From assembly GCA_033178465.1 (NCBI GenBank), contig GCA_033178465.1_4726.2: a stretch of DNA of 41,138 nucleotides, one strand, 5' to 3'. Source of the DNA: a phage. Both the position numbers and the translations under genes were made by a program. The notes below the pieces were generated by a model. It was given only the letters and a program-made list of their open reading frames with translations, was not told the origin of the DNA and did no database searches. Below are positions 13,922 through 40,199 of this stretch, piece after piece; within the stretch, counting starts at the first letter, position 1, and each line of letters opens with the position of its first letter.

Positions 13922-13952
13922 AGGACTTCCTATTATCGAATTGAGGTACGTC

Positions 13953-14306: not shown

Positions 14307-14311
14307 GATAA

Positions 14312-14340
14312 CCCTCCCACAGCGTAAAGCGTAGGGAGGG
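14312..14340. terminator. bidirectional terminator hairpin (CCCTCCC ... GGGAGGG)
   Basis: Inverted repeat between the convergent genes 13953..14306(+) and 14372..15652(-). Confidence 0.5.
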
Positions 14341-14371
14341 CATTTATGCCGTCGTTCGTTGGCTTAGCACA

Positions 14372-15652: not shown

Positions 15653-15679
15653 ATTGTATTTCCTTTTCTTTACGTCAAC

Positions 15680-15701
15680 GGTCCCCCTACAACAGGGGAC
15701 C
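15680..15701 (-). other. intergenic hairpin GGTCCCC-loop-GGGGACC
   Basis: 7-bp inverted repeat between 15708..17294 and 14372..15652; no clear U-tract, so terminator function is uncertain. Confidence 0.3.
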
Positions 15702-15707
15702 TATGGA

Positions 15708-18882: not shown

Positions 18883-19086
18883 AACAACCTCTTTTCGCGG
18901 TTCCCTGTTAAAACGTCTTCGGTGACGTCTACCACAAAGGTAATATAAGCGTGAATAATTTTGGATTCCGGCTGAGTTATCGCTCAGCATGCAAGGCATC
19001 CCGCCGAAGCGAGACACCTTGCACTAACGGAAAATATTCGCGTTACCTTCTGAATTAATGATTCAGAATGCGATGCTAAAGCGTTA

Positions 19087-19872
19087 TTAGAACGCTAAGC
19101 CATCAAAGGCTATAGACGGATCATCATCGTCATTTGCGCTTGGCGCATCCCAACGGGTATCAGGGGCCGCTGAAGCCGAACTTGATGCGTTAGAGTTACC
19201 GTTGTACTGGCCGTTACCAGCATTACGGTTACCGCCACCGTTGTTGTTACGGTTATAGTTATTGTTGCCATTACTTACGCTACGGCTTTCACCGTCGAAA
19301 TTGGTTGCGAGGATGCTCGGCAACACTGCGCGATGAATACGTACAAATTCCAACGCACAAAGCGGAGAAACAACCCCGATCTGTAAAGGTTGCCCAGACT
19401 CATCAACCAGAGCGTGGAAGCGCGGTGGCTTGAATACGAATTGGATGTTCGGTTTTTGGTACGCTGTTACAGCGATATATACCGAACCATCATCGTTCTT
19501 ACCAACCCATGTTGTACTTTCGGTAATCTGTTTCTTCTTACCTGGGTTATTGCGATCGTCGATAACCTTTTCGTTCTTCATCGCAAAACGTTGGCCTGGT
19601 TTACCCTTAGCAACCTGCTCGAGGATCGCAAGCAGGTTATAGAACGCGTATGAGCTCATGCGTGCCCAAATGCTTTCAGCGCGACCCTGCTGGTCTTTAC
19701 GACCGGTGTAAACCGTGATACGCGGTTGATTCTTAGCAACGCTAATTTTCAATGAGGGGATTGAATTACCGCCCTCAACCTTTTCGTCCGCCCACAGTTT
19801 CCAGTTGTTGTCGTCATACGCTGTAGGAATAATGTTTCCTTGTGGTTTACTGCCCGAATTCCAATTGCTCAT
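19087..19872 (-). CDS. putative ssDNA-binding (SSB-like) protein with N/G-rich disordered linker and acidic C-terminal tail
   Basis: 261 aa with an N-terminal folded-looking region, then an N/G-rich low-complexity segment (NGNNNYNRNNNGGGNRNAGNGQYNGNSN) and an acidic tail ending ...DDDDPSIAFDGLAF, reminiscent of SSB C-terminal tails. Functional call is weak. Confidence 0.35.
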   Translation of the reverse strand: MSNWNSGSKPQGNIIPTAYDDNNWKLWADEKVEGGNSIPSLKISVAKNQPRITVYTGRKDQQGRAESIWARMSSYAFYNLLAILEQVAKGKPGQRFAMKNEKVIDDRNNPGKKKQITESTTWVGKNDDGSVYIAVTAYQKPNIQFVFKPPRFHALVDESGQPLQIGVVSPLCALEFVRIHRAVLPSILATNFDGESRSVSNGNNNYNRNNNGGGNRNAGNGQYNGNSNASSSASAAPDTRWDAPSANDDDDPSIAFDGLAF

Positions 19873-24207: not shown

Positions 24208-24235
24208 CACCTAAGTAATATAGCCGTGAAAAATG
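24208..24235 (-). promoter_or_regulatory. putative phage early promoter (minus-strand TTTTCACGGCTATATTACTTAGGTG)
   Basis: Second copy of the conserved motif, upstream of 23657..24142. Confidence 0.5.
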
Positions 24236-25774: not shown

Positions 25775-26008
25775 TTAGCAATGGTTGTTAGTTGCTTCTA
25801 TTTCGTCAAGATACGGTTCTACGTCATCGCCCTCCACGAATTCGTTGAACCAACAGTCAATGGTAGAAATAACCGGCGACTGGTGTTCACATTTCTTAGA
25901 TACCTTAAAAGGTACGTTATTATCCATCATACCGAGTTCGGGTCGAAAACGCCCGAAATGTTTCGCAGTCCAAATGTCTGGGACGATATGGTTGTTCATC
26001 GTAGTGTT
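25775..26008 (-). CDS. RNA polymerase beta' N-terminal subunit, proposed terminal exon (exon 4)
   Basis: In-frame translation NTTMNNHIVPD...ELGMMDNNVPF parallels E. coli beta' (DGD)QMAVHVP...ARALMMSTNNILSP, the region just after the catalytic motif. Begins right after a CTG that follows a conserved hairpin (26012-26037). The ORF track lists this as a 79-aa ORF 25775..26014. Confidence 0.5.
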   Translation of the reverse strand, partial: NTTMNNHIVPDIWTAKHFGRFRPELGMMDNNVPFKVSKKCEHQSPVISTIDCWFNEFVEGDDVEPYLDEIEATNNHC

Positions 26009-26357
26009 CAGCATGAGTCGCTACCTCATACCCGCAGCTTTACCTGCAGCTTCCGGTGTTACCGGAATGTCCAGAATACATCTTATCCATATTCCAAATG
26101 GAACGTAGGACTTCCGCGCTGGATCTCGCTTGAGACCACGTATTCGTTGAACGTTCTCCTGAACGGAGCTTCGCTGCTGATCGAACATTGTTACGTACGG
26201 TAGGCGTCCCCGAAGGGATTGTCATTGAAGCCGCGTACATCCGCTACCTTGTTTCTACCTTATCGGTTCCTCTTACGAGGCGTAGCGGCCTTAGCCCTTC
26301 CCAGCAATTCACGGAATCCAAGCTCTTCCTTTCGGAAGACAGGGCCTATGATTAAGC
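26009..26357 (-). ncRNA. group I intron-like element C (ORF-less), approximate boundaries
   Basis: Minus-strand core elements in canonical order: P-like GAATTGCTGGGAAGGG (26315-26300), Q-like GATCAGCAGCG (about 26183-26171), R-like GTTCAACGAATACG (about 26143-26130), S-like TAAGATGTATTC (about 26090-26077), then a 3' hairpin with GTAGCGA loop and CTG before the exon. Confidence 0.5.
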
Positions 26358-26367
26358 GTCACCGTCG
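26358..26367 (-). CDS. proposed 10-nt micro-exon (C GAC GGT GAC) supplying the DGD of NADFDGD
   Basis: Lies between S element of intron B and P element of intron C; preceded by ...AACAG (candidate terminal G). It is the only placement found that restores the catalytic aspartate triad in frame. Inference only. Confidence 0.35.
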
Positions 26368-26743
26368 CTGTTATCGACTATATCTTCATCCTCGTTGCGA
26401 GGAGTCTCCCGTTTTGGTCTGTGTTTAACAGAACCTACTCTACTCGACATCGCGTCTTTCGATAGTCTGTGAGCATACATCTTAACGAACATTCGTGGAT
26501 TCCTAAACAGGTGAATGTTCTTGTTGAGATGCTTCGCTGCGGATTATTCCCGTCCTACCTCTTTTACCATACCCAGTTCATTACGCTGGCCCTCATCTGT
26601 GTCACCACGATGAGTTGGTGTGTAGTCCGATTACAGAAACTTCCCGTCAATTAGAGAGTTTTAACTACGTTCCTGTTACCAGAAACCAGATCCCGACGGT
26701 ATCAATAAATCAACGTAAGTTATTGATTTAATTGAAAAAACTG
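26368..26743 (-). ncRNA. group I intron-like element B (ORF-less), approximate boundaries
   Basis: Minus-strand P-like AATTGACGGGAA (about 26657-26641), P5-like GGGTATGGTAAAAG, Q exact AATCCGCAGC (26544-26535), R-like GCTCACAGACTATC (about 26478-26461), S-like GAAGATATAGTCG (26387-26375). The 3' tail after S is unusually short (7 nt), so the junction is uncertain. Confidence 0.5.
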
Positions 26744-26765
26744 AAATCTGCATTATCTAAATCTT
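26744..26765 (-). CDS. proposed 22-nt micro-exon (AA GAT TTA GAT AAT GCA GAT TT) supplying ...DLDNADF
   Basis: In-frame N-A-D-F codons at 26754..26744, immediately after the intron A 3' hairpin plus CTG and immediately before intron B. Inference only; the exon may start at 26762 instead. Confidence 0.4.
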
Positions 26766-27140
26766 CAGTATGGTTCGCTACACCATACCCGCACATACGT
26801 GCAGCTTACGTCTTTCACGTAAGAAGAGACTATATCTTTCACCCTCAGCATTATCTGGTCGGGGCCCCCATTTCGGCGGTCAGATGACCGGTGGTTTCCC
26901 ACGCCGCTTGGCCCTAACGCCCGTAAGCGATAGTCGTTGAGCACATCTCCGTTCTGGAGACTTCGCTGCGGATTCCCCAATCCTTGCCGCTTTTACCATA
27001 CCTGAATGATTAGTTCAGCCCCACACTCTGTTCCCAGGCGTGGTTGGTGGACAAGGCTCTAAGTAGGTTCCCGCATTAGGGAGTTCCTCGTAACAACATT
27101 TCTGCGTTACTGGGCCTAACGACCCTTTCAAGATCATCAC
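26766..27140 (-). ncRNA. group I intron-like element A (ORF-less), approximate boundaries (5' splice site estimated 27130-27146)
   Basis: Minus-strand P-like TAATGCGGGAAC (27080-27069), P5-like CAGGTATGGTAAAAG, Q exact AATCCGCAGC (26974-26965), R-like CTCAACGACTATCG (26941-26928), S-like AAAGATATAGTCTC (26839-26826), and a 3' hairpin GGTATGGT-GTAGCGA-ACCATAC (26795-26770). Confidence 0.55.
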
Positions 27141-28364
27141 GCTTAACCCGATGGTATTATCCTGCGGATCGCGTTTAACCTTGGTGATTTCAAGACATTG
27201 GTTACTGCTTCGGTCAAGTGATGGGTTTCGAACAAAACCACACACAATCCCATCGAACGGTGTATCAGCAATAAGCTCATCGTGCAGCTCACTCATCATC
27301 GGATGATAATTACGGACATGTTCCGCAACGAACGCACGTGCAGCTCTTGGTGAATAACCACGATGGAATAACTTGGATTGGATATGTTCTTTATTGGTTA
27401 AAGTAAATGGCGCGTATGGGAAATGCAGATGATAATAACGATGGTTCGCTGTTATCGAACTGATTACGGTACGCGTGGTGAATGGATGTAATGTACCTAA
27501 TATGTTTTTACGTGTAATACCTTTCTTCTTACCGATGAACTCATCGAAAATCGCCGCGTGGTATTGCAGCAGCTTCAATTGCACTTTCGCCATCCAGTTT
27601 TCTTTCTTTCTGGCGCTCAAAGGTGTTGTTGGGTGATAGATACTATTCAACGTACCGATAGCATCGATCGCACCTTCCATTTTGCTATCCGCATAACGAC
27701 CGGTTGGCGTATTCTCGATAACGAACATCATGGCCGCAGGAAAGCTGATATACTGACTGAAGAACTTATCACGATGGATACGGATGAATTCTCGTAGCGT
27801 GTCAACTTTCTCCGTGTTCTTCGGTCCACGTAACGTCGGTCCTTTATACAAGATCTCCATGATGCGATCGAAGTTCTGTATAAAGCTATTTACACCACGA
27901 CGTATCCCGAATACATCGAATTGCTGCTCCAGATAGTTCTTGAGTTCGATGGGTCGTTTTACATTTGGACGGTAACTGGCATCAATGAGCCACGTCATCG
28001 TTTCAAAGCTTTTGATATTCAACTCGCTTGCCAGCACGAGATGGACCAACGGGTTAATGAACGCATCGATTCCTTCAGGAACGCGCGCCCAAACAGTCGA
28101 ACGAATCTCTTGTTCTGCTGGGTAGGTTACAACCGTTTTACAGTTTGGACACACCGTGCCGAGTAGCTCACCACGATTGTAGAAACCACAACCACATTGT
28201 GGTGTGATATCCAACGTATCGCTGGAGTAAACACGGGTGATAAAACTGTTTAATTTCTTCTTCTCTTCGACGACTTTTGTATCGTAATCATTCAACAAAA
28301 TCGGCGTAAAAGGAAGTTCTGCGAGCTGTCTATCGAAACTCACGATATCGAGCATGATGGCCAT
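27015..28364 (-). CDS. RNA polymerase beta' N-terminal subunit, exon 1 (ORF as listed; true 3' end probably about 27130-27146)
   Basis: Zinc-ribbon [20 protein letters not shown] matches the beta' N-terminal Cx(2)C...Cx2C; [26 protein letters not shown] parallels [35 protein letters not shown] parallels NRAPTLHRLGIQ. The ORF then runs into intron-like sequence and stops without NADFDGD. Confidence 0.6.
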   Translation of the reverse strand: [449 protein letters not shown]

Positions 28365-28406
28365 GGGGTATCTCCTACAAATGAAAAAGAACGTTAGGAC
28401 GTATAA

Positions 28407-28430
28407 GGGAGGGAGGTTGCCCTCCCTCCC
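28407..28430 (-). terminator. terminator hairpin (GGGAGGGAGG-TTGC-CCTCCCTCCC)
   Basis: Perfect 10-bp inverted repeat 27 nt downstream of the chimallin-like gene stop, with a U-rich tract downstream on the minus strand. Confidence 0.55.
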
Positions 28431-28456
28431 GTCAGATTACATCGAACGTTCTTCCA

Positions 28457-30352
28457 TTAGAACAGGTTGAATGCCCCACCCATGTTGTTAACGCCAACAT
28501 TCGGACGATCGCTACGTGCGTAGATGTTACCGGAGATGTTACCCAGACCACGAGCACGTGCTGCCATGTTACCACGAACAGCGGTACCTGCCAGATGCTG
28601 GATGTTCTCAGGACGGATGGTGAAGCCAGCGTCAGCAGCGGCTTCGATCAGCGCCTGCAGTGCTAACGGATCGAAGTCGTAACGCATTGCCCAGCCGGTT
28701 TGTTCCCAGCTACCAGACAGAACACGATCAATGATTTCGTGACGAGCGACAACACGCTGAGACATCGTCATATCGGTACGGTCGAAGCTGTCTTCCCAAG
28801 CTTCTACGGTATCCGGGTTAGTGATGTTCATCATGTACAGATCGTCCATATCACGAATATCGTGACGGTGGCCATCCTGGTGGTTGTAGTGACCCAGCGG
28901 GATACGGTTACCGGTAGCGTAGACCAGCGGTAAGCCGTACTGATATTTCTTGCTGAAGCAGCCCAGGGTAGTATCATCGAAGGCACGGTAGAGTGCTTTG
29001 TAACCTTCGGAGATTTCACGGACTTCGCCTTCAACTTTACCCGTATAGATCTTCTCAGCCGCCGGGATCATACGCAGCAGCCAGCTGTATTCGCCTTCTT
29101 CCGGTACGTCGATAGAAATCAGCAGAGACGGATACAGTACCTGTTGCAGGAACTTGTAAATCTGCTCGTTGGTTTGAGTAGACAGATCCAGCGGTGCGGT
29201 AACTTCCGGATCCAGTACCATTGCCAGAGCACCCGGGTTATGCGGACCGATGCCACGAGCAGCGTTGCTGATTAAAGACTGTGCCCACGCCATACCGCTG
29301 TTCAGCGTAGCGATGGTACCAATCAGACCCAACACGAAAGTGTTCGGTGTGAACGCATCCAGCTCCAGCGGGTAAGCACTGGTCATCACGTAACGCGGCT
29401 GGTATTGTACAGTCGGCGGTACCGGATAACCGTTAACCAGAACAGGGCCTTGGTTGAAGGTCGGGTTCTGCGGGCTGTAGGTCAGGTCAATGTAACCGGT
29501 GGTGGCGACCAGACGCTGTTGACTATCGTAATCGCTCATCGCTTGACGGATGCGGTTAGAGATAGTTACAGTGATGTCAGAACGCACAGGGTTACCAACA
29601 ATATCGCTGTCCTGCATACCGCTGGTGTTGTACTGAACGCTGCTGATTGGCTGATCGCTTGCCATCATGCCCAGGTTGAACTGCGGCAGACCCAGTTTAT
29701 CACCGAGACGGATTTCGATCGCGGTTTGGATTGCGTTATCTGCAGCAGACAGCAGGGTGGTTGCCAGATGCGCAGATTCAGCGGTGATTTCATTGGTCAC
29801 CACAGCCAGACCAGCGATACGAGCAGTACCATTAGACTTACCGCCAATAGCTGCATACATTGCCGCCATGACTTCGTTGATGAACGTACCGTTCAGGTTA
29901 TCAACCCAGGTACGCGGTACCAGAATGTTACCGTGCGGACCTTGTTCTTCACGACGCGGCAGCGGAGCCAAACCGGCAACCAGCGGAAGCACATAACCGA
30001 AGAAGTGGTTATGGTCACCAACTTTTGCACCACTCATAACGACCAGGGTCGGATACGGTACACTGTACTGGTTAGGATCGACGGTCACCATGATGAAGTC
30101 GTCTTTGAATCCTTTATCTTCCAGTTCTTTCTCCATCAGACGACGGAGATTCAGTACCTGCTCGGAGCCAGTATTACGGCTAATACGACGGCTCAGTGTA
30201 CGGTTGATCGTACGCATCGTATGAGTTACTTTAGGCTGGCCAGCAAAATCTGCAGCGGTTTCCAGCGCCTCATCAGCACGTTGTGCGGTGCGGGTTTCAG
30301 CTGCACGAATTTCTACATTATCGTTACCGTTATTACGTACGTCTAAGCCCAT
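28457..30352 (-). CDS. chmA: putative chimallin (phage-nucleus shell protein), alternatively another major early protein
   Basis: 631-aa ORF with AGAGGA Shine-Dalgarno, driven by an early-promoter motif and ended by a strong terminator. It sits immediately upstream of the beta' N-terminal gene, matching the gp54-gp55 arrangement I recall for phiKZ; the length matches known chimallins (~630-700 aa); both termini look disordered. No motif-level confirmation is possible by eye. Confidence 0.5.
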   Translation of the reverse strand: MGLDVRNNGNDNVEIRAAETRTAQRADEALETAADFAGQPKVTHTMRTINRTLSRRISRNTGSEQVLNLRRLMEKELEDKGFKDDFIMVTVDPNQYSVPYPTLVVMSGAKVGDHNHFFGYVLPLVAGLAPLPRREEQGPHGNILVPRTWVDNLNGTFINEVMAAMYAAIGGKSNGTARIAGLAVVTNEITAESAHLATTLLSAADNAIQTAIEIRLGDKLGLPQFNLGMMASDQPISSVQYNTSGMQDSDIVGNPVRSDITVTISNRIRQAMSDYDSQQRLVATTGYIDLTYSPQNPTFNQGPVLVNGYPVPPTVQYQPRYVMTSAYPLELDAFTPNTFVLGLIGTIATLNSGMAWAQSLISNAARGIGPHNPGALAMVLDPEVTAPLDLSTQTNEQIYKFLQQVLYPSLLISIDVPEEGEYSWLLRMIPAAEKIYTGKVEGEVREISEGYKALYRAFDDTTLGCFSKKYQYGLPLVYATGNRIPLGHYNHQDGHRHDIRDMDDLYMMNITNPDTVEAWEDSFDRTDMTMSQRVVARHEIIDRVLSGSWEQTGWAMRYDFDPLALQALIEAAADAGFTIRPENIQHLAGTAVRGNMAARARGLGNISGNIYARSDRPNVGVNNMGGAFNLF

Positions 30353-30382
30353 TTGGGATTCCTCTTTTCTTAAACTTTATTA

Positions 30383-30394
30383 AATGACGTCATT
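30383..30394. repeat. 12-bp palindrome AATGACGTCATT (copy 2)
   Basis: Exact repeat of 1009-1020, located between the early promoter and the chimallin-like start codon. Confidence 0.4.
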
Positions 30395-30414
30395 GAATCA
30401 GCTTCTACTCGCTC

Positions 30415-30445
30415 ATTCACCTAGGTAATATAACCCTGAAATTTT
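30415..30445 (-). promoter_or_regulatory. putative phage early promoter (minus-strand TTTCAGGGTTATATTACCTAGGTG)
   Basis: Third copy of the conserved motif, about 70 nt upstream of the chimallin-like start. Confidence 0.5.
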
Positions 30446-30606
30446 TTTCAATATTGGTGTAACCGCATTGAACGATATAAACCCCTAGGCGAACGCTGCC
30501 GAGAAGCAACATTCTTTCTACATATAATCAGGATATGTCTGTAAACTTTTACTTCTCTTATTGAGAGTAATGTCATATCCGTTTACTACCTTCTTACGGA
30601 GTTCGT

Positions 30607-31701
30607 ATGTTTCGTGTTTTAAATAACCTCCCGCGAACATCATCGGGTGTGCAACCCGTCCCTCAGAAAGACTATCTAATACGCGAAGTTCAAAGAAACC
30701 TACAGACAATCCAGAACCACTATCAAGGTTTTACCTTCGCGGTTCAGAGCGATCACATCCTTGCGTTGCTGCTCGCACAGCTCCCTATGAGATACGACAT
30801 CTCAGTACAAACTTACTACGACATGATTCTCGATCTTACCCCAGAATTGGGTAATCGTGTCAAGTTGACAACATCAAGATACGCGGGTAAGTTATTCGAC
30901 GGTGCTTTCTATCCGGGATTGCACGAAGCTATTATCGCAACCGGTGAAAGTCGTCTTATTTCACGTGACGTTCTTGACAACTGGCGTAATTGGTCACCAG
31001 TTAGAATCGTGACGCACCCATACGCAAATCTTCGTTACATTCCTCTTCACCGAAAGCAGGTTGAAGATGGGCGAGGTTTTGCAGTCATTATGGTTGACGT
31101 ACCTTTATTAGCGCTACAGTATCGAATGTGGTCTTTGGTCATGGGTCATAACGTCGACGGTAAATGGGTGGTTAAAGAACCGGTTACAAGCTTCCTTGCG
31201 AGTTTTCCGTTGGTTAACGCATTATACTCACACAACGATGTTGTTATACGTAATCGTTGTTTGTGGGTATCACCGGCTAAGAATCCACTCAAATCACCCA
31301 TTTACGTTAACGACCTTGATAACGTATTCAGCCAAGTCGTTCTGTCCGTACAGCATCATTTATTACGAAGAAGACGAAGCTACACCGATATGCTTAAACA
31401 GATACCGAGTTTATACGGGGATCAGTACCAAGCAACCCGGATGGGCTATACCGTCGATCTTCGACAAACTCGATGGGCAAGGGATCTGGGTTGTCTGTCA
31501 TTATGGCAACAACTCGTCACATTGCAAAACGTATCTGAAAGCGTCGGGTTCAGCAGTCAAATCGATAACGACCTGTACCGTGCTGCCGACCGGAGTCTAA
31601 AAGAAGGTAACTGGGAGTCCTCTCCGTTACCTGGCGATTTAAGACGTGAAGTTATCGCACAGGTTGCCGACCTCTTAAAAATTCTTCCCGCTGGTGCATA
31701 A
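30607..31701 (+). CDS. hypothetical protein (plus strand)
   Basis: 364-aa ORF ending at a bidirectional CCTCCC/GGGAGG hairpin. Confidence 0.55.
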   Translation: MFRVLNNLPRTSSGVQPVPQKDYLIREVQRNLQTIQNHYQGFTFAVQSDHILALLLAQLPMRYDISVQTYYDMILDLTPELGNRVKLTTSRYAGKLFDGAFYPGLHEAIIATGESRLISRDVLDNWRNWSPVRIVTHPYANLRYIPLHRKQVEDGRGFAVIMVDVPLLALQYRMWSLVMGHNVDGKWVVKEPVTSFLASFPLVNALYSHNDVVIRNRCLWVSPAKNPLKSPIYVNDLDNVFSQVVLSVQHHLLRRRRSYTDMLKQIPSLYGDQYQATRMGYTVDLRQTRWARDLGCLSLWQQLVTLQNVSESVGFSSQIDNDLYRAADRSLKEGNWESSPLPGDLRREVIAQVADLLKILPAGA

Positions 31702-31720
31702 TCACCTCCTCTTCCCTTGC

Positions 31721-31750
31721 ATCCTCCCTTCCCTTACGGGTTGGGAGGAT
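31721..31750. terminator. bidirectional terminator hairpin (ATCCTCCC ... GGGAGGAT)
   Basis: Inverted repeat between convergent genes 30607..31701(+) and 31768..33921(-). Confidence 0.45.
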
Positions 31751-31767
31751 GGGGATGGTGGGTTATG

Positions 31768-33921
31768 TTATTCTACGGTTTCTCGCTTCGGTAAATAACT
31801 TGCTGCAATGTCTTGGGCTAACAATGTATTGTTTTTATTCGAGATGAAAATACCGTAACTTTCCATTAACGCGTAATACGAACGAACGAGCGTAGAGATC
31901 AATCGACGAATATCCATACCTTGAATAAAGATATCGGGAAGCCCGGAGGCTTCGATCACCGGTAATGGTATCGTTAAGTTGCTTATCGTTTTCTTATCGT
32001 TACGTACAATCCAATCACGGAAACGTTGTTGTAACCCTTTATCCTCCCAGGAATCAATCCAATCGTTAAGAAGCGTTTTGTTCTTCGTCGCCAACGGCAC
32101 ACGAACCCCAACATAGGGTGGTTCCTGGCAATGGCCGTACGATTGAGCAAACACCTCTTCCCACATATCGTAAGACTGTTTCGTTACTGCAACATGCGGT
32201 TTCACTTTAACACGTGTTAAGAAATCAGGATCACCACGTTTCATGGACTCAACGATTTCGTTTTCTAACGAGATAATATCGTCAAGAACCAATCGAATGC
32301 TGATCTTCTCGTTACGTAACAGCTTATCCATGATACCACACATCATGCGTTCAACACGTTTGACGATCATTTTTGGTGCTGACGCATCGCGCATAACCGG
32401 ACCTTTCAATTCCAGCTTCGGTGGATTGATAGGAACCCCTTCACGCATGGTCATGTAACCGTAATAGTTTTTACCCATCGAGGTTAACGACAGAATCAAG
32501 AACATATATTCGTTCTTCATTTCCATCACGTACATATGCTCTTTCGCCACACCGATATTACCAGAACACATCGCCATCAGATGAACCGTAATCTGCGTAA
32601 CCAGATAGATAAGCGTGTTTGCTAAGCGCGTCGAAACTGGATTGATCTCCATATTTCCAAATCGCCACTGAACCCACTCCTGGCAGGTAAACACCGTCGA
32701 GTCGGTATCAGACAACACGCCCACTTCACGGATTGCTGATGGGAAAGCATAAACACCAGCCGGTTGGTTCTCGGTACGCCAGAACGCCATAATCAAATCA
32801 GCATAGCTTTGAATACGCTGTAGCATTAATTTTGTCGTTGCTGCAGTAAGACGATAACCAAGTTCATTTCCTTTTTCTAGCGCTACGTAAATCGCTTCCC
32901 CGTTCAAGAACTCCGTGCATTGTGCTGTAATCCAAGCGACCGTGTTGTTATCCATGGAAGCAATAATGGCTTTAGCCTCTTCCATCGTTTCAACCGGTTC
33001 GGATGCCAGTTCACATAACGAGTCAAGAAAATCTCGAACAAATTCAGGATTAAGCTCACGTAACGAGTACAGGTTATTGCTGTACATGTAGCAGGCACGT
33101 TCCAACGGTGTTAAACCGGTAATTAACTCCCGGATAGTCAGTTCTTTCTCTGGGTCGAAAGTATACCGATGCAAGCATTTCGATACGTTAGCCCAAACCT
33201 CTTCCGGCGTAGGGTAATGTAGTTTGTATTTTACCATTACCTGTTCAATGGCTTTACGATCGCTGTTGCGGACAATACTCACGATGTTTTCAATTGCGAT
33301 ATCACAATCGTAATAATGGAAATTGCCCGCAAGGAAGCGTTCGTTGTTCGCATTGGCTGAACCTGAAGCACAGCGACATGTTGTCGTTAAACTTGGATGC
33401 GCGATCGGATTATAAAAAGGGTTAAACTTGGACGCCTGGGTTCCCGACAAACTGTTGTTATCTAACTTGGTGTTGGTTTGTCGTTTATCGTGTAACTCAG
33501 CTTCATCTTTACGTCCGTGTGCTTGCGCTATCGACATTTGTTTCTTTTGTTTCTTACGCAACTTACCGTTTTCAACCGCGAAGTCGCTTAGCACACTGGA
33601 ACGTGTTTCACGTGGATAACAGTTAGCCCATACCGGCGTGATAATTAAATTATTTTCTTTAATATCATTGAAGTATTGGCTGAACTTGATGACTTCTTTT
33701 TCTCGATTTCCTTCGGTACGCTGTGTTAATACCAGGCAGTCGGGATCAACCATCCCGTATTTTCCACCGGGACGAACCGTATCAAGGACAAACTGCAACG
33801 CTTCCTGCTGTGATATCCCACGCATACGCATTAAGAACAGGGTATAATCCTGTACCGCTTCTTTGGTCATATCCAACGTACGACCGTATCCGTTTTCATC
33901 GTAAAAGAACGGATTTTCCAT
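31768..33921 (-). CDS. large hypothetical protein (717 aa) with acidic DxD-type motifs; function unassigned
   Basis: Long uninterrupted ORF. Contains LSDTDSTVF and KNYYGYM, which loosely recall polymerase motifs but in a non-canonical order, so no family is assigned. Confidence 0.6.
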   Translation of the reverse strand: MENPFFYDENGYGRTLDMTKEAVQDYTLFLMRMRGISQQEALQFVLDTVRPGGKYGMVDPDCLVLTQRTEGNREKEVIKFSQYFNDIKENNLIITPVWANCYPRETRSSVLSDFAVENGKLRKKQKKQMSIAQAHGRKDEAELHDKRQTNTKLDNNSLSGTQASKFNPFYNPIAHPSLTTTCRCASGSANANNERFLAGNFHYYDCDIAIENIVSIVRNSDRKAIEQVMVKYKLHYPTPEEVWANVSKCLHRYTFDPEKELTIRELITGLTPLERACYMYSNNLYSLRELNPEFVRDFLDSLCELASEPVETMEEAKAIIASMDNNTVAWITAQCTEFLNGEAIYVALEKGNELGYRLTAATTKLMLQRIQSYADLIMAFWRTENQPAGVYAFPSAIREVGVLSDTDSTVFTCQEWVQWRFGNMEINPVSTRLANTLIYLVTQITVHLMAMCSGNIGVAKEHMYVMEMKNEYMFLILSLTSMGKNYYGYMTMREGVPINPPKLELKGPVMRDASAPKMIVKRVERMMCGIMDKLLRNEKISIRLVLDDIISLENEIVESMKRGDPDFLTRVKVKPHVAVTKQSYDMWEEVFAQSYGHCQEPPYVGVRVPLATKNKTLLNDWIDSWEDKGLQQRFRDWIVRNDKKTISNLTIPLPVIEASGLPDIFIQGMDIRRLISTLVRSYYALMESYGIFISNKNNTLLAQDIAASYLPKRETVE

Positions 33922-33990
33922 AAATCCTCCAAAAGTTATTTAGTCTGTCTACATCATCTCGTATATCTGTTAAAAAAGAAGGACGGCATA

Positions 33991-34030
33991 AAAAAGAACC
34001 GATCCAGCCGAAGCCAGATCGGTTAAAAAA
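33991..34030 (-). terminator. terminator hairpin flanked by A/T runs (GAACCGATC-loop-GATCGGTT)
   Basis: 8-bp stem with A6 on one side and A6 on the other on the plus strand, which read as U-tracts on the minus strand; downstream of 34221..34634. Confidence 0.45.
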
Positions 34031-34220
34031 GGATAATAACTGACAGAAAGATATCGATGATGTTCGTGAAACAAGATCTTCTCTCGTGTACAATGATGCT
34101 AGATCAGAGGGAGGTTGTAACACGAGAGGTGGTCCGCCAAAGAAGGAATAAAAACACGAACCTATCTTATTTCACTGATGGCACTAACCACTCAAAATAT
34201 ATAGTACCGTATGTAAAAGT

Positions 34221-34634
34221 TTACTGATTAATCAAGTCGTTAGCAACAATCTTGGTGTAACCCGCCTGATTAAGAATTTGATTAATTTTCGTCACGTCGG
34301 TCGCATCCTCAATAACGATGCTGGGTTTATAGATCAGCGTCTTGGTAACGACGATTGTACTCTCCTTAATCCAAGGAATCCCTAGAATCACATACTCACC
34401 ATCGGCTGTAATGACCTCGACGTAATTGTATTTCGTCGGATCGTTCGGTACACTAGACGGGAGCCGGGAATAAATCTGTTGGTGAATGGCATCTACATCA
34501 CGACCGTTACGTACAGCTGTGCGATAATTGTACACAGCGCTAATTTCTACTCCGTTGAAGTTAACCCCAAGTTCTGGGGCGTACACATCAAAACTCACAA
34601 CAGAGCCAATCTTTTCTAAATCAGAAGCTGGCAT
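34221..34634 (-). CDS. hypothetical protein
   Basis: 137-aa ORF in the minus-strand array. Confidence 0.55.
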   Translation of the reverse strand: MPASDLEKIGSVVSFDVYAPELGVNFNGVEISAVYNYRTAVRNGRDVDAIHQQIYSRLPSSVPNDPTKYNYVEVITADGEYVILGIPWIKESTIVVTKTLIYKPSIVIEDATDVTKINQILNQAGYTKIVANDLINQ

Positions 34635-34645
34635 AATAGCATCCT

Positions 34646-35044
34646 TTATTTAAAAATGTATTCATATCCGAAAGTCGTCGCTGACCAGACCCGGATAGAT
34701 GATAGTGTTCCGCCACGATAAAACGTTTTTGTGAATTCCATATCCTGGACAACACGATAATAAACACGTCCGATAATACGCACGATAAGGTTTCGTGATA
34801 ACGATCTCTCCTCGCAGTATTCATCGATAAAGTCATCGTCGATATCCGATAAGACAACATCCGCAATTTCTTGCAGTAGATTCCTCATCAGCATCTGCCT
34901 TCCTTCGGTACCCCACCCAGACAAACAGTAATCGTCTTCTGCCTGACTATAGATGTCGTTAACCGCCTGTTCGAGCAGTTGCTCAAGATAGTAGTCATCG
35001 CGTTTTATAACGTGGCGACGGCGCTCAGTGGCGTATTTTTCCAT
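34646..35044 (-). CDS. hypothetical small protein
   Basis: ORF 34646..35167 trimmed to the internal ATG at 35044 to limit overlap with 35005..35493; start uncertain. Confidence 0.4.
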   Translation of the reverse strand: MEKYATERRRHVIKRDDYYLEQLLEQAVNDIYSQAEDDYCLSGWGTEGRQMLMRNLLQEIADVVLSDIDDDFIDEYCEERSLSRNLIVRIIGRVYYRVVQDMEFTKTFYRGGTLSSIRVWSATTFGYEYIFK

Positions 35045-35493
35045 CCTGTGTTTCTCTTGTTCGGCGTATGTATTAACGACGCCACAGTCTTTTCTGGATC
35101 GTCCCACAATGCACGACGAAAACTGGATACTACCATAACGGTAGGATAGATTTGTACAACCTCCCATCCGTAACGGTGTGCGTTAGTCGTACGTCCGACA
35201 TTGAACAGACATAACTGATTTAAGAAACAGAGCTGCATCTTCGTAAACAACACCATGTCTTCACGTTTAACGTATCCTAGGATATACGCATTCTCGAACG
35301 CCTCGCGCGACAAGACGGGACGATTAAGATACCGTAACGCTAATACCAACAACGTTGTTATGCGCAACGGATCTTCTGGGTCATTCATGGTGCTCAGCTC
35401 TGCTTGTAACCAGTCAGGGATAGTAACCGTCAGACGATAGGTATCTGTTCCACGATCAACCACATTCAATGTTGAAAAAGGCAACATATCCAT
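35005..35493 (-). CDS. hypothetical protein
   Basis: 162-aa ORF. Confidence 0.45.
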   Translation of the reverse strand: MDMLPFSTLNVVDRGTDTYRLTVTIPDWLQAELSTMNDPEDPLRITTLLVLALRYLNRPVLSREAFENAYILGYVKREDMVLFTKMQLCFLNQLCLFNVGRTTNAHRYGWEVVQIYPTVMVVSSFRRALWDDPEKTVASLIHTPNKRNTGWKNTPLSAVATL

Positions 35494-35950
35494 GAATTCC
35501 TTCTAGCTCGAGGTTGTTCTCGCCGGTCTTCGGTAATAACCCACTGGCCGTTAACATCTGTGTCATCGAGTAGTCAAAGCACGGGAATATCAGGTTAACG
35601 GTTTCCTGGATCGCGTCAACATAACTATAAATGGCTTCATAATACTCACCGTCATGATCCACGCTAACCAGTTCCTGACACAGTTCTTCGCTTATCATTT
35701 CATATACCGGCGGATACCACGATTGAAATGGTCGCTGCATACGTAACGACCAATACTCATACGTCGTATACTGAAGCACGTCATAAGCCGATACGTTAAT
35801 GCGGTCGAAGAAAGAATACTTGTCCATATGCTGATACAACATCGCCAGCACGGTTTCCAAGCACACCGATATCCGCACGCCGTCATCTTTCCCGTTAAGA
35901 AAATTAGGTTTCTGCCGATAACGCACAAATGCCGACGGCTTTGATTGCAT
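35456..35950 (-). CDS. hypothetical protein
   Basis: ORF 35456..36031; ATG at 35950 overlaps the stop of the upstream gene (TAATG), suggesting translational coupling. Confidence 0.45.
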   Translation of the reverse strand: MQSKPSAFVRYRQKPNFLNGKDDGVRISVCLETVLAMLYQHMDKYSFFDRINVSAYDVLQYTTYEYWSLRMQRPFQSWYPPVYEMISEELCQELVSVDHDGEYYEAIYSYVDAIQETVNLIFPCFDYSMTQMLTASGLLPKTGENNLELEGIHGYVAFFNIECG

Positions 35951-36435
35951 TATTCCACCACCAACCATAACGTCATACTCGTATCTAACGTAAAATTGAA
36001 ATGCCACCAATCTTCTACACGTGGAATCCACGTACGAAGGATTTGGTTAACTTCGCTTCGCATCACCGATAAACGACAACGAAAATCGAACTTCTCATCG
36101 TGGCCGTAGTCTTCATGCATGAAAACTTCATCCAAAACGAACTCAAGTTGCATGTCGACATCACGGCCAGAGATATTCCGTTTGTACAAATACAACTCAA
36201 TCGTGTCGTAAAGCAACGTATGAATATCATAATTTCCGTTCGGTGAGAAATAAGGTAATCGCTCATCGAGCATCGAAAACAGATATTCACTGTAGTTTAA
36301 TAACGGGATGATGTACCGACGCCCTGTCTGTGGTGTGCGAATATGTATCGAAACCTGACTTGGGCGCGGAATAACCGACGGCTTAGAATCGTCTCTCTGA
36401 AATTGCTCTAAAGATCGCAACAAAGGTGGCCGCAT
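35950..36435 (-). CDS. hypothetical protein
   Basis: ORF 35950..36501; ATG at 36435 has GGAGAG 5 nt upstream. Confidence 0.45.
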   Translation of the reverse strand: MRPPLLRSLEQFQRDDSKPSVIPRPSQVSIHIRTPQTGRRYIIPLLNYSEYLFSMLDERLPYFSPNGNYDIHTLLYDTIELYLYKRNISGRDVDMQLEFVLDEVFMHEDYGHDEKFDFRCRLSVMRSEVNQILRTWIPRVEDWWHFNFTLDTSMTLWLVVE

Positions 36436-36679
36436 TGTAACTCTCCAACGCCCAATTGTAAGGCCCTTCCAACATGTGTTCCCATACGTGAATAAACTCA
36501 CTACCGAAGACAGGCTCTAGTGCCATAGTGAGATTCGTAAGTTCTGACGCGGCCGCATGGTAAGCATCAACATGTCTTTCCATTGACGGATCGTCTTCAT
36601 TGAAAATACGTTCTGTATCGCCAGCGCGCTCAATAAGTTCGGTAATGAGATCTGTCCATGTCTCGTGACACGTCATCAT
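36383..36679 (-). CDS. hypothetical small protein (uncertain)
   Basis: C-terminal portion of ORF 36383..37012 from an internal ATG; overlaps neighbours in other frames. Confidence 0.25.
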   Translation of the reverse strand: MMTCHETWTDLITELIERAGDTERIFNEDDPSMERHVDAYHAAASELTNLTMALEPVFGSEFIHVWEHMLEGPYNWALESYNAATFVAIFRAISERRF

Positions 36680-37607
36680 TTCCTGTTCTCGACTTAGTAT
36701 GCCGATGTCTGCGTGGACGCTGGACTCGAACCGGTCTAAAAGGACCCGAAGAACGTGCACCTTGTCGATGTATTTCACCGTTATCCAAGAAAGCGGTTGC
36801 CACCGACTCAGCATCCATCCGGTACTCGGGAACCCCAAACTCATATAGTACGGGTTGCACCAGACCGAAGACGGAGCGACGTTGTTTAAATCGCTCCTTA
36901 AGGGCAAGGCCTTGTTTAATATAAACGGGTTCATTGGCGAGTTGTTCCGCTTTTCGTTTTGCGTGAGCCAATCGAAGTTCTTCCAATTGCCCAAGCCATT
37001 CAAATTGTTCATCTGTTAGCTCCTGGGGACGTTCAACAATCGCGCCAGACGGGCAGATATTGATCGTAATGTTAATTGACGGCATCGCCATCACTCGAGG
37101 ATTACTATTACGTACGCGGACAACATGTTCGGTTGCTGATTTACGATCGACGCAATACTCTGTTTCTTGGAACTCAAATGCTTTTAACGGTGTTGGTTTT
37201 GTTTGACGTTTAGGAACGCGGCCAAGATCGACAATATAGGCATAATCGCACACACGTTCTATTCCGTAAATACGGTTATCCGACCAGTTCTTACCAAACA
37301 GCTTATTGTGATGATAAGACAGATATTCGGTTACCATACCCTGTACAACATCGAAGTCTTCTCGAAATTCGGGTTGGTACCAAATCGGGCCGAGAATATC
37401 TGCGAACGATTCATGACGATATCGAGGATCATGTCGAGTCCAGGTCATTCTCTGATTAAGATCGAAATCCACCAACAACTCGGTTAATTGCAATTTTTCC
37501 TTCGGAGAAAGCTGGCGTTGATGATGCAAACTCAGGCAATCGATAAGCGGTAATGAAACCCACGATGCTAATGTGTACAAATCGATCCTGGCTAATCTCT
37601 TGGTCAT
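36630..37607 (-). CDS. hypothetical protein
   Basis: 325-aa ORF with AGGAAAAGAG Shine-Dalgarno. Confidence 0.5.
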   Translation of the reverse strand: MTKRLARIDLYTLASWVSLPLIDCLSLHHQRQLSPKEKLQLTELLVDFDLNQRMTWTRHDPRYRHESFADILGPIWYQPEFREDFDVVQGMVTEYLSYHHNKLFGKNWSDNRIYGIERVCDYAYIVDLGRVPKRQTKPTPLKAFEFQETEYCVDRKSATEHVVRVRNSNPRVMAMPSINITINICPSGAIVERPQELTDEQFEWLGQLEELRLAHAKRKAEQLANEPVYIKQGLALKERFKQRRSVFGLVQPVLYEFGVPEYRMDAESVATAFLDNGEIHRQGARSSGPFRPVRVQRPRRHRHTKSRTGNDDVSRDMDRSHYRTY

Positions 37608-37693
37608 ACTCTTTTCCTAAGTCCCCATTGTTTATACACACGATATCTGGGAATAGTTAAAATATACGGCGTAAAACGAAGCAGGAGAGTTTC

Positions 37694-37701
37694 TGACGTC
37701 A
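37694..37701. repeat. TGACGTCA palindrome (third occurrence, as CTGACGTCATTT)
   Basis: Shares the TGACGTCATT core with the two 12-bp palindromes; overlaps the stop codon of 37699..38019. Confidence 0.3.
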
Positions 37702-38019
37702 TTTTCTCCCTCTTCGAATACTACCGATACCTCTTTCGTCTAAGACGTCCCAGGCACGCTTTATTTCATCCTCCGTTGCTCTGGTATCTGGAGGGACAAC
37801 CATAACACAGTCGTGGAATGGCCAATGTGCAGGTCTGGGGCTCGCGAACAAATCATCCCATTCAAATGTCCATTCTTTCTTTGAGCGATTGTAGTAGAGC
37901 GTAAGGTACGTGTTGGTATACGCCGGATAACCGCGCATAACTTCAATATCCTTACGATCTTGCCGTTCCTGATTCCAATCGTTAAACCGCTTTCTTATTT
38001 TCTCCCACCACTTTCCCAT
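37699..38019 (-). CDS. hypothetical protein
   Basis: 106-aa ORF with AGGAGAAAGC Shine-Dalgarno. Confidence 0.5.
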   Translation of the reverse strand: MGKWWEKIRKRFNDWNQERQDRKDIEVMRGYPAYTNTYLTLYYNRSKKEWTFEWDDLFASPRPAHWPFHDCVMVVPPDTRATEDEIKRAWDVLDERGIGSIRRGRK

Positions 38020-38073
38020 GCTTTCTCCTAGACGGCATAAAAAGCCTGCCCCGAAGGACAGGCTCGATAGAAC

Positions 38074-38274
38074 TTAACGACCATCCAATTTCAATGAAGG
38101 ATGGTTGACGATATGTGCGTGTTTTGCTGGGTCATATAGCTGATATGGAAAATAGCCATGCCATTGACGGCCTTGGCATTTCGTACACAGGAACTGACCA
38201 ACACCTTGTCGATTCTCGTAAGCGAGTTCGGTACTATCAACATGTCCGCAACGTTCGCAGATAAACAGCGACAT
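38074..38274 (-). CDS. small zinc-ribbon protein
   Basis: 66-aa ORF with two CxxC pairs (CERCGH ... CTKCQG). Confidence 0.45.
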   Translation of the reverse strand: MSLFICERCGHVDSTELAYENRQGVGQFLCTKCQGRQWHGYFPYQLYDPAKHAHIVNHPSLKLDGR

Positions 38275-38311
38275 AGCGCATCCCCATTCACTTGAACCTT
38301 TTGGTTCGGCA

Positions 38312-39292
38312 TTAGAAAAGCAAGAAACCGCTATTCTTCGCTTCCGCTACAGTTTCGTCACCAACTTTCGGTGCTTGTTGACGCGCGTTACGATGTTCGA
38401 TGTAACGTTTCGCTTCGTCAGCGATTTGTTTGATAATACCCCCTAAACGATCGGTACTTAAAACAAACGACGTCGCTTCACGAATTGGGCTGCTTTCAGG
38501 CACAAAACCATCGCAGCTGTAAATAGCGCTAACGCCCATGACTTTTGTCGCGTCTTTCGGATAAAGCGTACAGAAAGCAATCGGGCTATCGTTCTCTTTC
38601 GTCCAATCGTATCCCATGAACGTATTCAGTTCGGTGATCGTTGGTTCCAAACCGGTAACACGTGGATGGTTTAAGAAGTTTTCCAGGTCGGCGCTGTCAA
38701 GACGACGGTTCTCGCCAGAAAACAGAACACAAAGCTGGCTGATAACAACCTGCACGTCCAGGTTGACATCCTGCTCCGATTTCCCATTTTCGCCATTCAT
38801 GTGATAGCTAACAATCACTGGACGTTTCAACCCTTCTGCAGCCGCCATCAGTCCTTTGAAGGTGCGATCGGCGTTGATCGTCTGGCGCTCATCATCGAAC
38901 GAGGCAACGATACAACACACCACACGTTCACCGCGTTCCAGCAGGTTAGCAACCAACGCAGGACCGGCAACAGAACCTGAACCACCGCTCAAACTAAAGA
39001 CCACGATATTAAATTTACCTGGCGTATGCTTATTGAGAATACCTGGGATTTGCGAGCAGATCAGCTCAGCGTTCTCGTCACGCTTCTTACCAGAACCGTC
39101 TAACTCACGACCAGCTGCATCTTTAAAGATGTAAATATGATCGTCGCCCAGTGTGCTATCGCGTAGGTTAGCGCGGCTGGTATCAACATACGTCATGCTG
39201 TGTAATCCTTTCGCGACTTCGCCTTCAAATGCTGAGCCGATTTCGCCACCACAACCACCGACAGCCCAAATATGTACTTGGTTCTCTTGCAT
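38312..39292 (-). CDS. phuZ: tubulin/FtsZ-like GTPase, PhuZ homolog
   Basis: 326 aa. N-terminal nucleotide-binding glycine motif HIWAVGGCGGEIG and tubulin signature-like FSLSGGSGSVAGP; overall pattern resembles the PhuZ sequence as I recall it; AGGAG Shine-Dalgarno. Confidence 0.75.
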   Translation of the reverse strand: MQENQVHIWAVGGCGGEIGSAFEGEVAKGLHSMTYVDTSRANLRDSTLGDDHIYIFKDAAGRELDGSGKKRDENAELICSQIPGILNKHTPGKFNIVVFSLSGGSGSVAGPALVANLLERGERVVCCIVASFDDERQTINADRTFKGLMAAAEGLKRPVIVSYHMNGENGKSEQDVNLDVQVVISQLCVLFSGENRRLDSADLENFLNHPRVTGLEPTITELNTFMGYDWTKENDSPIAFCTLYPKDATKVMGVSAIYSCDGFVPESSPIREATSFVLSTDRLGGIIKQIADEAKRYIEHRNARQQAPKVGDETVAEAKNSGFLLF

Positions 39293-39356
39293 GTGAACTC
39301 CTAATTTAATATGTATTTAACGCACAATGAATCTTTCTTTGCTAAAGGGGTGACCC

Positions 39357-40199
39357 ATGGGTGCTATTGACTACAGTGTAGATCGTATCTGTCGTACAAT
39401 ACCGGCAGATATCCTACAGTATTGCTATATCGATCGTTACGACTGGCGTAATCGCTATCCTCGTTCCGTAGAAGACATCATTACCGATTGGGTAATCCGT
39501 AAACGGGTTATCGGCGACATCGATATCTACGGGGGACTACAAACCGTTATCCCCCTTGATGATGCCGGTGTCACTATCGAGGAAGTCACCATTAACTGTT
39601 ATGTTTTCCACATCCCGTTGGAAGCCACGCAGGGACGTTATATCACGTCTGCATTATCCATTATTTCAGGGAGCGTGAACAACTACGGAATAAACTATAA
39701 CGGGCAATGGGGTGCTTTCAACCAAACCCAGTTTCAACGTCAGCTTTGTGGGTGGAACCCCGCAAGCAACACGTTACAGCAAGGGATGAACGCGTTCGGT
39801 CCCATGAACGTTCTTAGTACAGCCAACGTTGATATCATCGCCCCTAACACCATCATGGTGAACAACGTCACGCCTGTACAATTTCCCCTGAGCCTACGCT
39901 GTTTCCTTGCCCACGATCCGGAACTTACCAACCTCAGCATGGAGGTTTGGAACGACTTCTACAAACTCTGTTTATACGCCACACAAAGTGACATCTACAA
40001 TAGAACCGTTATCCGTCTCGATAGAGGTGTTACAGCACAAGGACAAGAAGTCGGTGCATTCAAGGAATACATCGATCGCTTTGCCGATGCTGAAAACACA
40101 TATCAGGAATTCCTGAACGAAACGTGGGCTGGCGTTGCTGCCTGGAACGATCCACAAACTAAACGTCGCGCCATTCGACTACAAACCGGTTACTTCTGA
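39357..40199 (+). CDS. hypothetical protein (plus strand)
   Basis: 280-aa ORF with AAGGGG upstream of the ATG, ending at a terminator hairpin. Confidence 0.55.
   Translation: MGAIDYSVDRICRTIPADILQYCYIDRYDWRNRYPRSVEDIITDWVIRKRVIGDIDIYGGLQTVIPLDDAGVTIEEVTINCYVFHIPLEATQGRYITSALSIISGSVNNYGINYNGQWGAFNQTQFQRQLCGWNPASNTLQQGMNAFGPMNVLSTANVDIIAPNTIMVNNVTPVQFPLSLRCFLAHDPELTNLSMEVWNDFYKLCLYATQSDIYNRTVIRLDRGVTAQGQEVGAFKEYIDRFADAENTYQEFLNETWAGVAAWNDPQTKRRAIRLQTGYF

Follow-up and report, generated by a model that had tools for sequence, protein, structure and literature searches.

Chimallin and PhuZ tubulin genes in a close relative of Escherichia phage Goslar

The locus and its surroundings

The window (the whole stretch of 41,138 nucleotides that we analysed) carries on its minus strand a gene for a 631-aa protein and, 8 kb away, a gene for a 326-aa tubulin homologue, here called chmA and phuZ (Table 1). 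Its DNA is 96-98% identical to that of Escherichia phage vB_EcoM_Goslar (98.4% over 28000-40000, 98.1% over 16200-41138 and 96.1% over 1-16300), and it runs collinear with Goslar gp158-gp228, a segment that holds two RNA polymerase subunits (gp165 and gp171) and ChmC (gp176). Goslar is the E. coli model among nucleus-forming jumbo phages. The core-genome context of the Chimalliviridae is present in the form of the beta'-N subunit, the PF20286 DNA polymerase and ChmC, and on sequence grounds the source of the window is a Goslar-like member of this family of nucleus-forming jumbo phages of E. coli. A megablast search of complete E. coli genomes with chmA gave no match, so none of those assemblies carries it as a prophage or a phage contig.

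Table 1. Positions of the genes, exons, introns and putative signals discussed in the text.
Feature	Position	Strand	Remarks
beta'-N gene, part following exon 1	25775..27121	-	three introns, two micro-exons, last exon
beta'-N last exon	25999-25775	-	splice model
beta'-N intron C	26354-26000	-	Rfam RF00028, 16.8 bits
beta'-N second micro-exon	26367-26355	-	13 nt
beta'-N intron B	26743-26368	-	Rfam RF00028, 50.7 bits
beta'-N first micro-exon	26756-26744	-	13 nt
beta'-N intron A	27121-26757	-	Rfam RF00028, 29.7 bits
beta'-N gene exon 1 (non-virion RNA polymerase)	27122..28364	-	PDB 7OGP_A (phiKZ gp55/56.1), E = 1e-59; homology ends at aa 414
Composite G+C-rich hairpin and T-run, terminator-like	28381..28454	-	between chmA and beta'-N gene; predicted function
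chmA, chimallin (major nuclear-shell protein)	28457..30352	-	ORF of 631 aa, ATG; PDB 7SQT; Pfam PF25677; Goslar HOV27_gp246
phiKZ-type early (virion RNA polymerase) promoter-like motif TTCAGGGTTATATTACCTAGGTG	30418..30440	-	upstream of chmA; predicted function
Divergent family B DNA polymerase, 717 aa	31768..33921	-	Pfam PF20286, E = 2e-204
Strong terminator-like hairpin, 12 pairs and T-run	33997..34024	-	between small-gene cluster and DNA polymerase gene; terminator in Goslar annotation
SH3-fold protein associated with phage DNA polymerases, 137 aa	34221..34634	-	Pfam PF20287, E = 1e-36
Intrinsic terminator-like hairpin, AGCCTGTCC-TTCG-GGGCAGGCT then TTTTT	38039..38064	-	after phuZ and a 66-aa ORF; Goslar-annotated terminator at the same place
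phuZ, phage tubulin	38312..39292	-	ORF of 326 aa, ATG; PDB 9PM9; motifs; Goslar HOV27_gp234

Phages of this kind transcribe with RNA polymerases of their own, so a phage motif was sought in place of sigma-70 promoters, for which a scan was uninformative (18 sites against 22.6 expected). The chmA ATG is preceded, at a distance of 65-87 nt, by the 23-nt motif TTCAGGGTTATATTACCTAGGTG, which contains TATATTAC, the published core of the phiKZ early promoter (PMC7058600 Table 2); the flanks of the motif resemble the 201phi2-1 consensus. The window has four copies of it, each on the minus strand, where shuffles would give none; no copy was found upstream of phuZ within the window. On the other side of chmA, the RNA of the hairpin at 28386-28454 (minus strand) folds at -40 kcal/mol (z = -7.3, with 0 of 200 shuffles as stable), and its 3' arm continues into TTCTTTTTCATTT. 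A simple terminator scan missed this hairpin because of its internal loops; it is absent from the annotation of the Goslar record, and the Goslar sequence is identical here, with no mismatch over 28324-28623. We infer that both elements are functional: the virion RNA polymerase injected with the DNA would probably start at the TATATTAC-type promoter to transcribe chmA early in infection, and the transcript would end at the hairpin. The early promoter and the strong terminator that an earlier note on this DNA had ascribed to the 631-aa gene thus stand as predictions, and its placement of the gene directly upstream of a beta' N-terminal gene was correct, since the next gene downstream (28364-27122, minus strand) matches phiKZ gp55. 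The same neighbour follows chmA in Goslar, and the adjacency of the two genes is shared with phiKZ.

This beta'-N gene is itself split. Splice junctions were defined by intron-less alleles of related contigs, and the predicted spliced product aligns through NADFDGD to phiKZ gp55/56.1 with 255 bits. By this model three group I introns interrupt a stretch of just 27 nt coding for the catalytic NADFDGD motif, leaving two 13-nt micro-exons. Related metagenomic Goslar-like phages with identical ChmA use four insertion sites in the same stretch, some with HNH endonuclease genes and some without. We lean towards this arrangement, which would fit an ongoing competition of introns for one active-site target, and it may be new. 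Two contigs (L003 and L004) were rejected as simple intron-less alleles: their ORF reads ...YNASDEALPS..., with DFDGDAMNNH downstream, pointing to a related intron at another site. The related contigs also correct the Goslar reference annotation, in which gp247, the two micro-exons and gp185 would form one intron-split gene.

Chimallin, PhuZ and the predicted phage nucleus

The 631-aa protein matches Goslar chimallin (PDB 7SQT) with E = 0 and 625 of 631 residues identical, and for the 326-aa protein the match is Goslar PhuZ (PDB 9PM9), with E = 4e-220 and a single substitution over 325 aligned residues. The Goslar counterparts, numbered gp246 for ChmA and gp234 for PhuZ, are annotated in RefSeq as 'nuclear shell protein' (HOV27_gp246) and 'tubulin PhuZ' (HOV27_gp234). 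We put at about 97% the probability that the two genes, as read from sequence, encode the chimallin and the PhuZ of a close Goslar relative; this agrees with the assignment in the earlier note, and no observation speaks against it. Shell and tubulin genes of this kind are already known, and the proteins have been solved and studied in Goslar. The phage nucleus was an important discovery to which the window adds no new system; the E. coli phage nucleus, with its chimallin lattice and PhuZ vortex, was characterised in Goslar, from which this natural variant has diverged by about 2%.

Identities, motifs and gene context were computed here, while assembly, rotation, the essentiality of ChmA and early expression come from published work on Goslar, a phage about 98% identical. 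There, the structure and lattice of ChmA have been published from cryo-EM, which also resolved its NTS and CTS segments, and square-lattice assembly of ChmA around phage DNA during infection was seen by cryo-ET, cryo-EM and knock-down. Infection was arrested on ChmA knock-down, making ChmA essential, and PhuZ and the nucleus genes were classed as early (PMC10541120). By analogy, ChmA of the present phage would self-assemble through flexible N- and C-terminal segments into a square-lattice protein shell, which would enclose the replicating phage DNA and exclude host nucleases. PhuZ, a tubulin-family GTPase, would form dynamic filaments arranged as a vortex around the shell, and these would rotate it.

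The earlier note had PhuZ filaments centring the phage nucleus. A bipolar spindle that holds the nucleus at midcell is the classical model for the Pseudomonas phages 201phi2-1, phiKZ and phiPA3, but Goslar PhuZ builds a vortex instead. Experiments in Goslar covered the shell, the PhuZ vortex and a dominant-negative D202A mutant, and showed dynamic, GTP-dependent PhuZ filaments around the phage nucleus; D202A PhuZ reduced rotation, whereas positioning and growth were apparently unaffected (PMC9891218). A centring spindle is consequently unlikely in the present phage, and a rotating vortex is the role that we would expect of its PhuZ.

Organisation of the region between chmA and phuZ

Both genes had been assigned to a single early module. 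The two ORFs are indeed present, both on the minus strand, but they stand 8 kb apart, with some 12 genes and two or more terminators in between, and therefore they do not form one operon or tight module. The intervening sequence holds a divergently transcribed plus-strand gene (30607-31701), the DNA polymerase gene, which lies outside any shell or spindle module, and about 10 small ORFs. PHROGs and Pfam scans of these genes found no nucleus-related function, only the DNA polymerase, SH3DP, DUF7484 and ORFans.

Co-transcription of chmA and phuZ as one early unit could draw on their common strand and on the early expression of both in Goslar (PMC10541120). Against it stand the 8 kb gap, with phuZ upstream of chmA, the two terminator-like hairpins and the divergent gene that lie in between, the promoter motif that chmA has of its own, and a family survey in which only 66% of chimallin-encoding phages had PhuZ. 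We consider it very improbable, and phuZ would rather be a separate transcription unit.

Fold assignment and sequence conservation of ChmA and PhuZ

The assignment of ChmA extends beyond its Goslar orthologue. Pfam PF25677 (Chimallin_Phikzvirus) scores 89.7 bits, where its cut-off is 27, with aa 21-595 aligned over profile positions 12-591 of 627, and other chimallins with solved lattices are also matched (8FNE of phiPA3, 5e-21; 7SQQ of 201phi2-1, 4e-10); phiKZ gp54, 201phi2-1 gp105 and phiPA3 gp53 belong to the same family at low sequence similarity. A capsid or other structural protein in place of a shell protein, the fold that would have spoken against the earlier chimallin assignment, has a negligible chance, as the PDB matches at E <= 0.001 are only chimallin/PhuN chains, Chimallin_Phikzvirus is the sole Pfam match, and nothing speaks for it, a weak PHROG 'virion structural protein' match belonging to the different gene at 30607-31701 (plus strand).

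For PhuZ, the assignment rests on the PDB matches, because Pfam PF00091 (Tubulin) reaches 29.9 bits, below its 33-bit cut-off. PhuZ of phiKZ (3ZBP, 8e-29) and of 201phi2-1 (3R4V, 6e-15) are matched besides that of Goslar, and phiKZ gp39 and 201phi2-1 gp59 are of the same family, again at low sequence similarity. The glycine-rich GTP-binding motifs noted earlier are kept: GGCGG at aa 12-16 (T1) and SGGSGS at aa 102-107 (T4) align with GGAG and GGASGS of phiKZ and with GGGSGS of 201phi2-1. The T7 loop reads DSAD at aa 199-202, and its aspartates D199 and D202 align with D187 and D190 of 201phi2-1, so that the GTPase residues whose loss would have told against a PhuZ tubulin are in place. The catalytic aspartates of this loop, D187 and D190 in 201phi2-1 and D202 in Goslar, are needed for GTP hydrolysis. 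That the protein is instead of the TubZ/FtsZ type, serving DNA segregation or cell division, is hardly credible: Pfam detects no more than a generic Tubulin/FtsZ GTPase domain, which scores under its cut-off, but all tubulin-family PDB matches at E <= 10 are PhuZ (Goslar, phiKZ, 201phi2-1), with no TubZ, FtsZ or tubulin chain among them, and filaments of the Goslar orthologue surround the phage nucleus (PMC9891218).

In MAFFT alignments with Goslar, 43 nucleotide differences in chmA produce 6 amino-acid changes and 12 in phuZ produce one, and both genes look constrained, which suggests strong constraint on ChmA and PhuZ within the Goslar-like population. PhuZ has the 326 aa of its Goslar counterpart (HOV27_gp234, also gp201; PDB 9PM9/9PMK), with identical T1, T4 and T7 motifs, D202 and C-terminal tail, and differs by the conservative D229 here for E in Goslar. 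ChmA likewise has the 631 aa of the Goslar protein (HOV27_gp246, also gp189; PDB 7SQT/7SQU/7SQV); no difference falls in residues 1-75 or 462-631, where the NTS and CTS segments would lie, and the substitutions (here/Goslar) are E76/Y, K80/T, G81/R, M88/F, T90/A and T461/V. Five of the six fall within 15 residues, aa 76-90, a patch that occurs in two forms among relatives. On a weaker reading, the two forms could determine shell compatibility between co-infecting lineages. The exact ChmA form of the window is common in metagenome assemblies, where it was found in 89 index blocks, 32 of them with contigs longer than 200 kb.

Shell and tubulin proteins of a Goslar-type phage

The sole GenBank phage matched by the window in megablast was Escherichia phage vB_EcoM_Goslar (MK327938 / NC_048170, 237,307 bp), with which it is collinear and shares a DNA identity of 98.4% over 28000-40000, 98.1% over 16200-41138 and 96.1% over 1-16300. 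The RefSeq record of Goslar names the chmA counterpart HOV27_gp246 'nuclear shell protein' and the phuZ counterpart HOV27_gp234 'tubulin PhuZ'; publications call ChmA gp246 or gp189, and PhuZ gp234 or gp201. The window is a natural variant of a Goslar-type phage, and its shell and tubulin biology is already known: Goslar serves as the model for the phage nucleus in E. coli, and structures of both proteins have been solved. Among public assemblies, 89 blocks list an identical ChmA sequence, and 32 of these blocks have contigs longer than 200 kb; it was not found in complete E. coli genomes.

The earlier note had read a 631-aa protein as the shell protein chimallin and a 326-aa tubulin-like GTPase as PhuZ. 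Both ORFs lie exactly where it placed them, on a strand (minus) that it did not give, and both identifications are borne out. The 631-aa protein is chimallin: its best PDB match is Goslar chimallin 7SQT (E = 0, 1417 bits, full length), followed by weaker matches to phiPA3 PhuN (8FNE, 5e-21) and 201phi2-1 chimallin (7SQQ, 4e-10), with no PDB match outside chimallin and PhuN at E <= 0.001, and Pfam returned PF25677 Chimallin_Phikzvirus alone (89.7 bits, cut-off 27). The gene differs from that of Goslar by 43 nucleotides, giving six amino-acid changes. Sixteen of the 43 fall within 66 nt (30062-30127, codons 76-97) and account for five of the six changes, namely (Goslar residue in brackets) E76 (Y), K80 (T), G81 (R), M88 (F) and T90 (A); the sixth, T461 (V), lies outside this patch. 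Relatives carry two patch forms, one in the window and the IMG/VR locus L009, the other in Goslar and the related contig L011, the latter form being uniform except at residue 81 (R or Q). Such a patch suggests a small recombination tract and not a mutational hot spot. No change from Goslar is seen in residues 1-75 or 462-631, which would take in the NTS and the docking segments CTS1 and CTS2 of Laughlin et al. Published chimallin has a flexible N-tail and CTS linkers, and the disordered-looking termini remarked on earlier would, by analogy, fit that flexibility.

As judged from its sequence, the 326-aa protein is PhuZ. Its best PDB match is 9PM9 of Goslar (4e-220), from which it departs by a single substitution, D229 for E, only one of 12 nucleotide differences altering an amino acid. 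Other matches are 3ZBP (phiKZ PhuZ, 8e-29) and 3R4V, 3RB8 and 3J5V (201phi2-1 PhuZ, ~6e-15), and no TubZ, FtsZ or tubulin chain was among the PDB matches even at an E limit of 10. The generic Pfam Tubulin model scores 29.9 bits, just under its cut-off of 33, and the assignment is therefore based on the PDB matches. The glycine-rich GTP-binding motifs proposed for this protein are present: GGCGG at 12-16 is the T1 loop and SGGSGS at 102-107 the T4 signature. The T7 loop keeps its aspartates, D199 and D202. All of these align with phiKZ and 201phi2-1 PhuZ, the aspartates with D187 and D190 of the latter. With D202A PhuZ, Goslar loses the vortex and its nucleus rotates more slowly (PMC9891218). 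PhuZ is missing in about one third of chimalliviruses and dispensable in phiKZ; it belongs to the accessory, not the core, components of the nucleus.

The two proteins end in similar hydrophobic tails (ChmA ...GGAFNLF, 28457-28480; PhuZ ...NSGFLLF, 38312-38335), which may be a coincidence or a common docking-type terminus. By collinearity with Goslar, the window also holds ChmC, a nucleus-associated RNA-binding protein, and two RNA polymerase beta-like subunits, and thus further nucleus-related and core genes outside the range of the earlier note.

Transcription signals and the separation of chmA from phuZ

The window has four copies of TATATTAC, each on its minus strand, and all of them have in common a 23-nt motif, TTCASGSYTATATTACYTNNGTG, for which 100 shuffles gave 0 matches. 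For phiKZ, TATATTAC has been published as the core of the early promoter (PMC7058600); its flanks here resemble the 201phi2-1 and OBP consensus, and early motifs of this kind mark virion RNA polymerase promoters. Given the agreement of the motif with the phiKZ / 201phi2-1 early-promoter consensus, the four copies are probably promoters for a Goslar-type virion RNA polymerase, and the early promoter claimed for chmA is plausible, since one copy stands upstream of that gene. The strong terminator also claimed was found as a terminator-like hairpin in the gap from the chmA stop codon to the start codon that follows, GGGAGGGAGG-GCAA-CCTCCCTCCC within a longer stem (predicted -40 kcal/mol, z = -7.3), whose 3' arm leads into TTCTTTTTCATTT. 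The gene that follows has its match in gp55, part of the phiKZ non-virion RNA polymerase (7OGP_A, 1e-59), and chmA had thus been correctly placed upstream of a beta' N-terminal gene.

The proposal that chmA and phuZ form one early module stands only in part. They do not constitute one module or operon, as, on their shared minus strand, 8 kb and two terminators separate chmA from phuZ, the upstream gene of the two; a plus-strand gene, a 66-aa ORF, nine mostly ORFan genes, an SH3DP gene (PF20287) and a divergent family B DNA polymerase gene (PF20286) also intervene. No early-promoter motif was found upstream of phuZ within the window. 'Early' is probably right for both genes, since Goslar RNA-seq groups PhuZ with early-expressed nucleus genes (PMC10541120). 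The 66-aa ORF, just 3' of phuZ, has a weak, sub-threshold match to the Pfam Elf1-like zinc ribbon (E = 9e-4, 19.7 bits, cut-off 29.8).

By analogy with Goslar experiments, transferred via ~99% protein identity, a lipid vesicle would enclose the injected genome, and inside it the virion RNA polymerase would transcribe early genes, chmA included. ChmA would assemble into a tetramer-based square lattice held by its NTS, CTS1 and CTS2 segments, the genome would enter this shell, and replication would begin. Knock-down of ChmA in Goslar stops infection at the vesicle stage (PMC10541120). PhuZ would polymerise round the shell and rotate it, as in Goslar (PMC9891218).

Features of the window, with exons and introns as predicted
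Feature	Position	Strand	Remark
RNA polymerase beta-like subunit	7675-9681	-	gp165 of Goslar
RNA polymerase beta-like subunit	11753-14086	-	gp171 of Goslar
ChmC	19087-19872	-	gp176 of Goslar
TTCASGSYTATATTACYTNNGTG copy	936-958	-	upstream of minus-strand gene
TTCASGSYTATATTACYTNNGTG copy	18933-18955	-	upstream of minus-strand gene
TTCASGSYTATATTACYTNNGTG copy	24208-24230	-	upstream of minus-strand gene
TTCASGSYTATATTACYTNNGTG copy	30418-30440	-	65-87 nt upstream of chmA (minus-strand) start codon
Exon 1	28364-27122	-	ends ...MILKG + T of Tyr codon
Intron A	27121-26757	-	365 nt
First micro-exon	26756-26744	-	13 nt
Intron B	26743-26368	-	376 nt, without ORF in the window
Second micro-exon	26367-26355	-	13 nt
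Intron C	26354-26000	-	355 nt
Last exon	25999-25775	-	Goslar 'hypothetical' gp185
chmA	28457-30352	-	ATG start, 631 aa
Intervening gene	30607-31701	+	between phuZ and chmA
Strong terminator	33997-34024		between phuZ and chmA
Terminator	38039-38064		between phuZ and chmA
66-aa ORF	38074-38274	-	just 3' of phuZ
phuZ	38312-39292	-	ATG start, 326 aa

Predicted group I introns in the beta'-N gene

In the 449-aa ORF downstream of chmA, homology to phiKZ gp55 stops at residue 414. Compared with Goslar, the window cleanly lacks the HNH endonuclease gene gp186 and carries a 367-nt insertion. Rfam matched group I introns at 26352-26734 (50.7 bits), at 26806-27142 (29.7 bits, E = 3e-5) and, weakly, at 26112-26316 (16.8 bits). 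Natural intron-less alleles occur in related contigs with the same ChmA, where KGYNADF (L005), DGDAMNNH (L006) and DFDGDAMNNH (L003 and L004) are contiguous, and a splice model for the window was therefore drawn from these alleles at each site. In this model T ends every 5' exon and G every intron; the predicted product of 497 aa contains ...LKGYNADFDGDAMNNH... and aligns with phiKZ gp55/56.1 across the motif (21-476 to 41-495) at 255 bits, versus 205 for exon 1 alone. The beta'-N gene (25775-28364, minus strand) seems to be interrupted by three group I introns within its catalytic NADFDGD codons, with splicing that we infer from these comparisons. The Goslar RefSeq record annotates a single intron here, leaving gp247 truncated and gp185 'hypothetical'. 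HNH-bearing mobile introns are known in general from chimallivirus RNA polymerase genes; a full-text literature search pairing 'Goslar' with 'group I intron' retrieved only a review and no description of the triple arrangement.

On the sequences compared (Goslar, the window, and L003-L009 and L011, contigs whose ChmA is the same or similar), intron presence differs across the Goslar-like population, and the beta'-N motif appears to be an intron hot spot, with four insertion sites in a 27-nt stretch, after KG+T, YNA, NADF and DGDA. A C-like intron, ~70% identical to intron C, follows YNA in L003, L004 and L011, and a C-like intron occupies two sites of L011 simultaneously. HNH endonuclease ORFs are present in L006, L008 and Goslar and absent from others; in L006 and L008 they follow exon 1, and in L008 the intron A sequence comes after the HNH gene.
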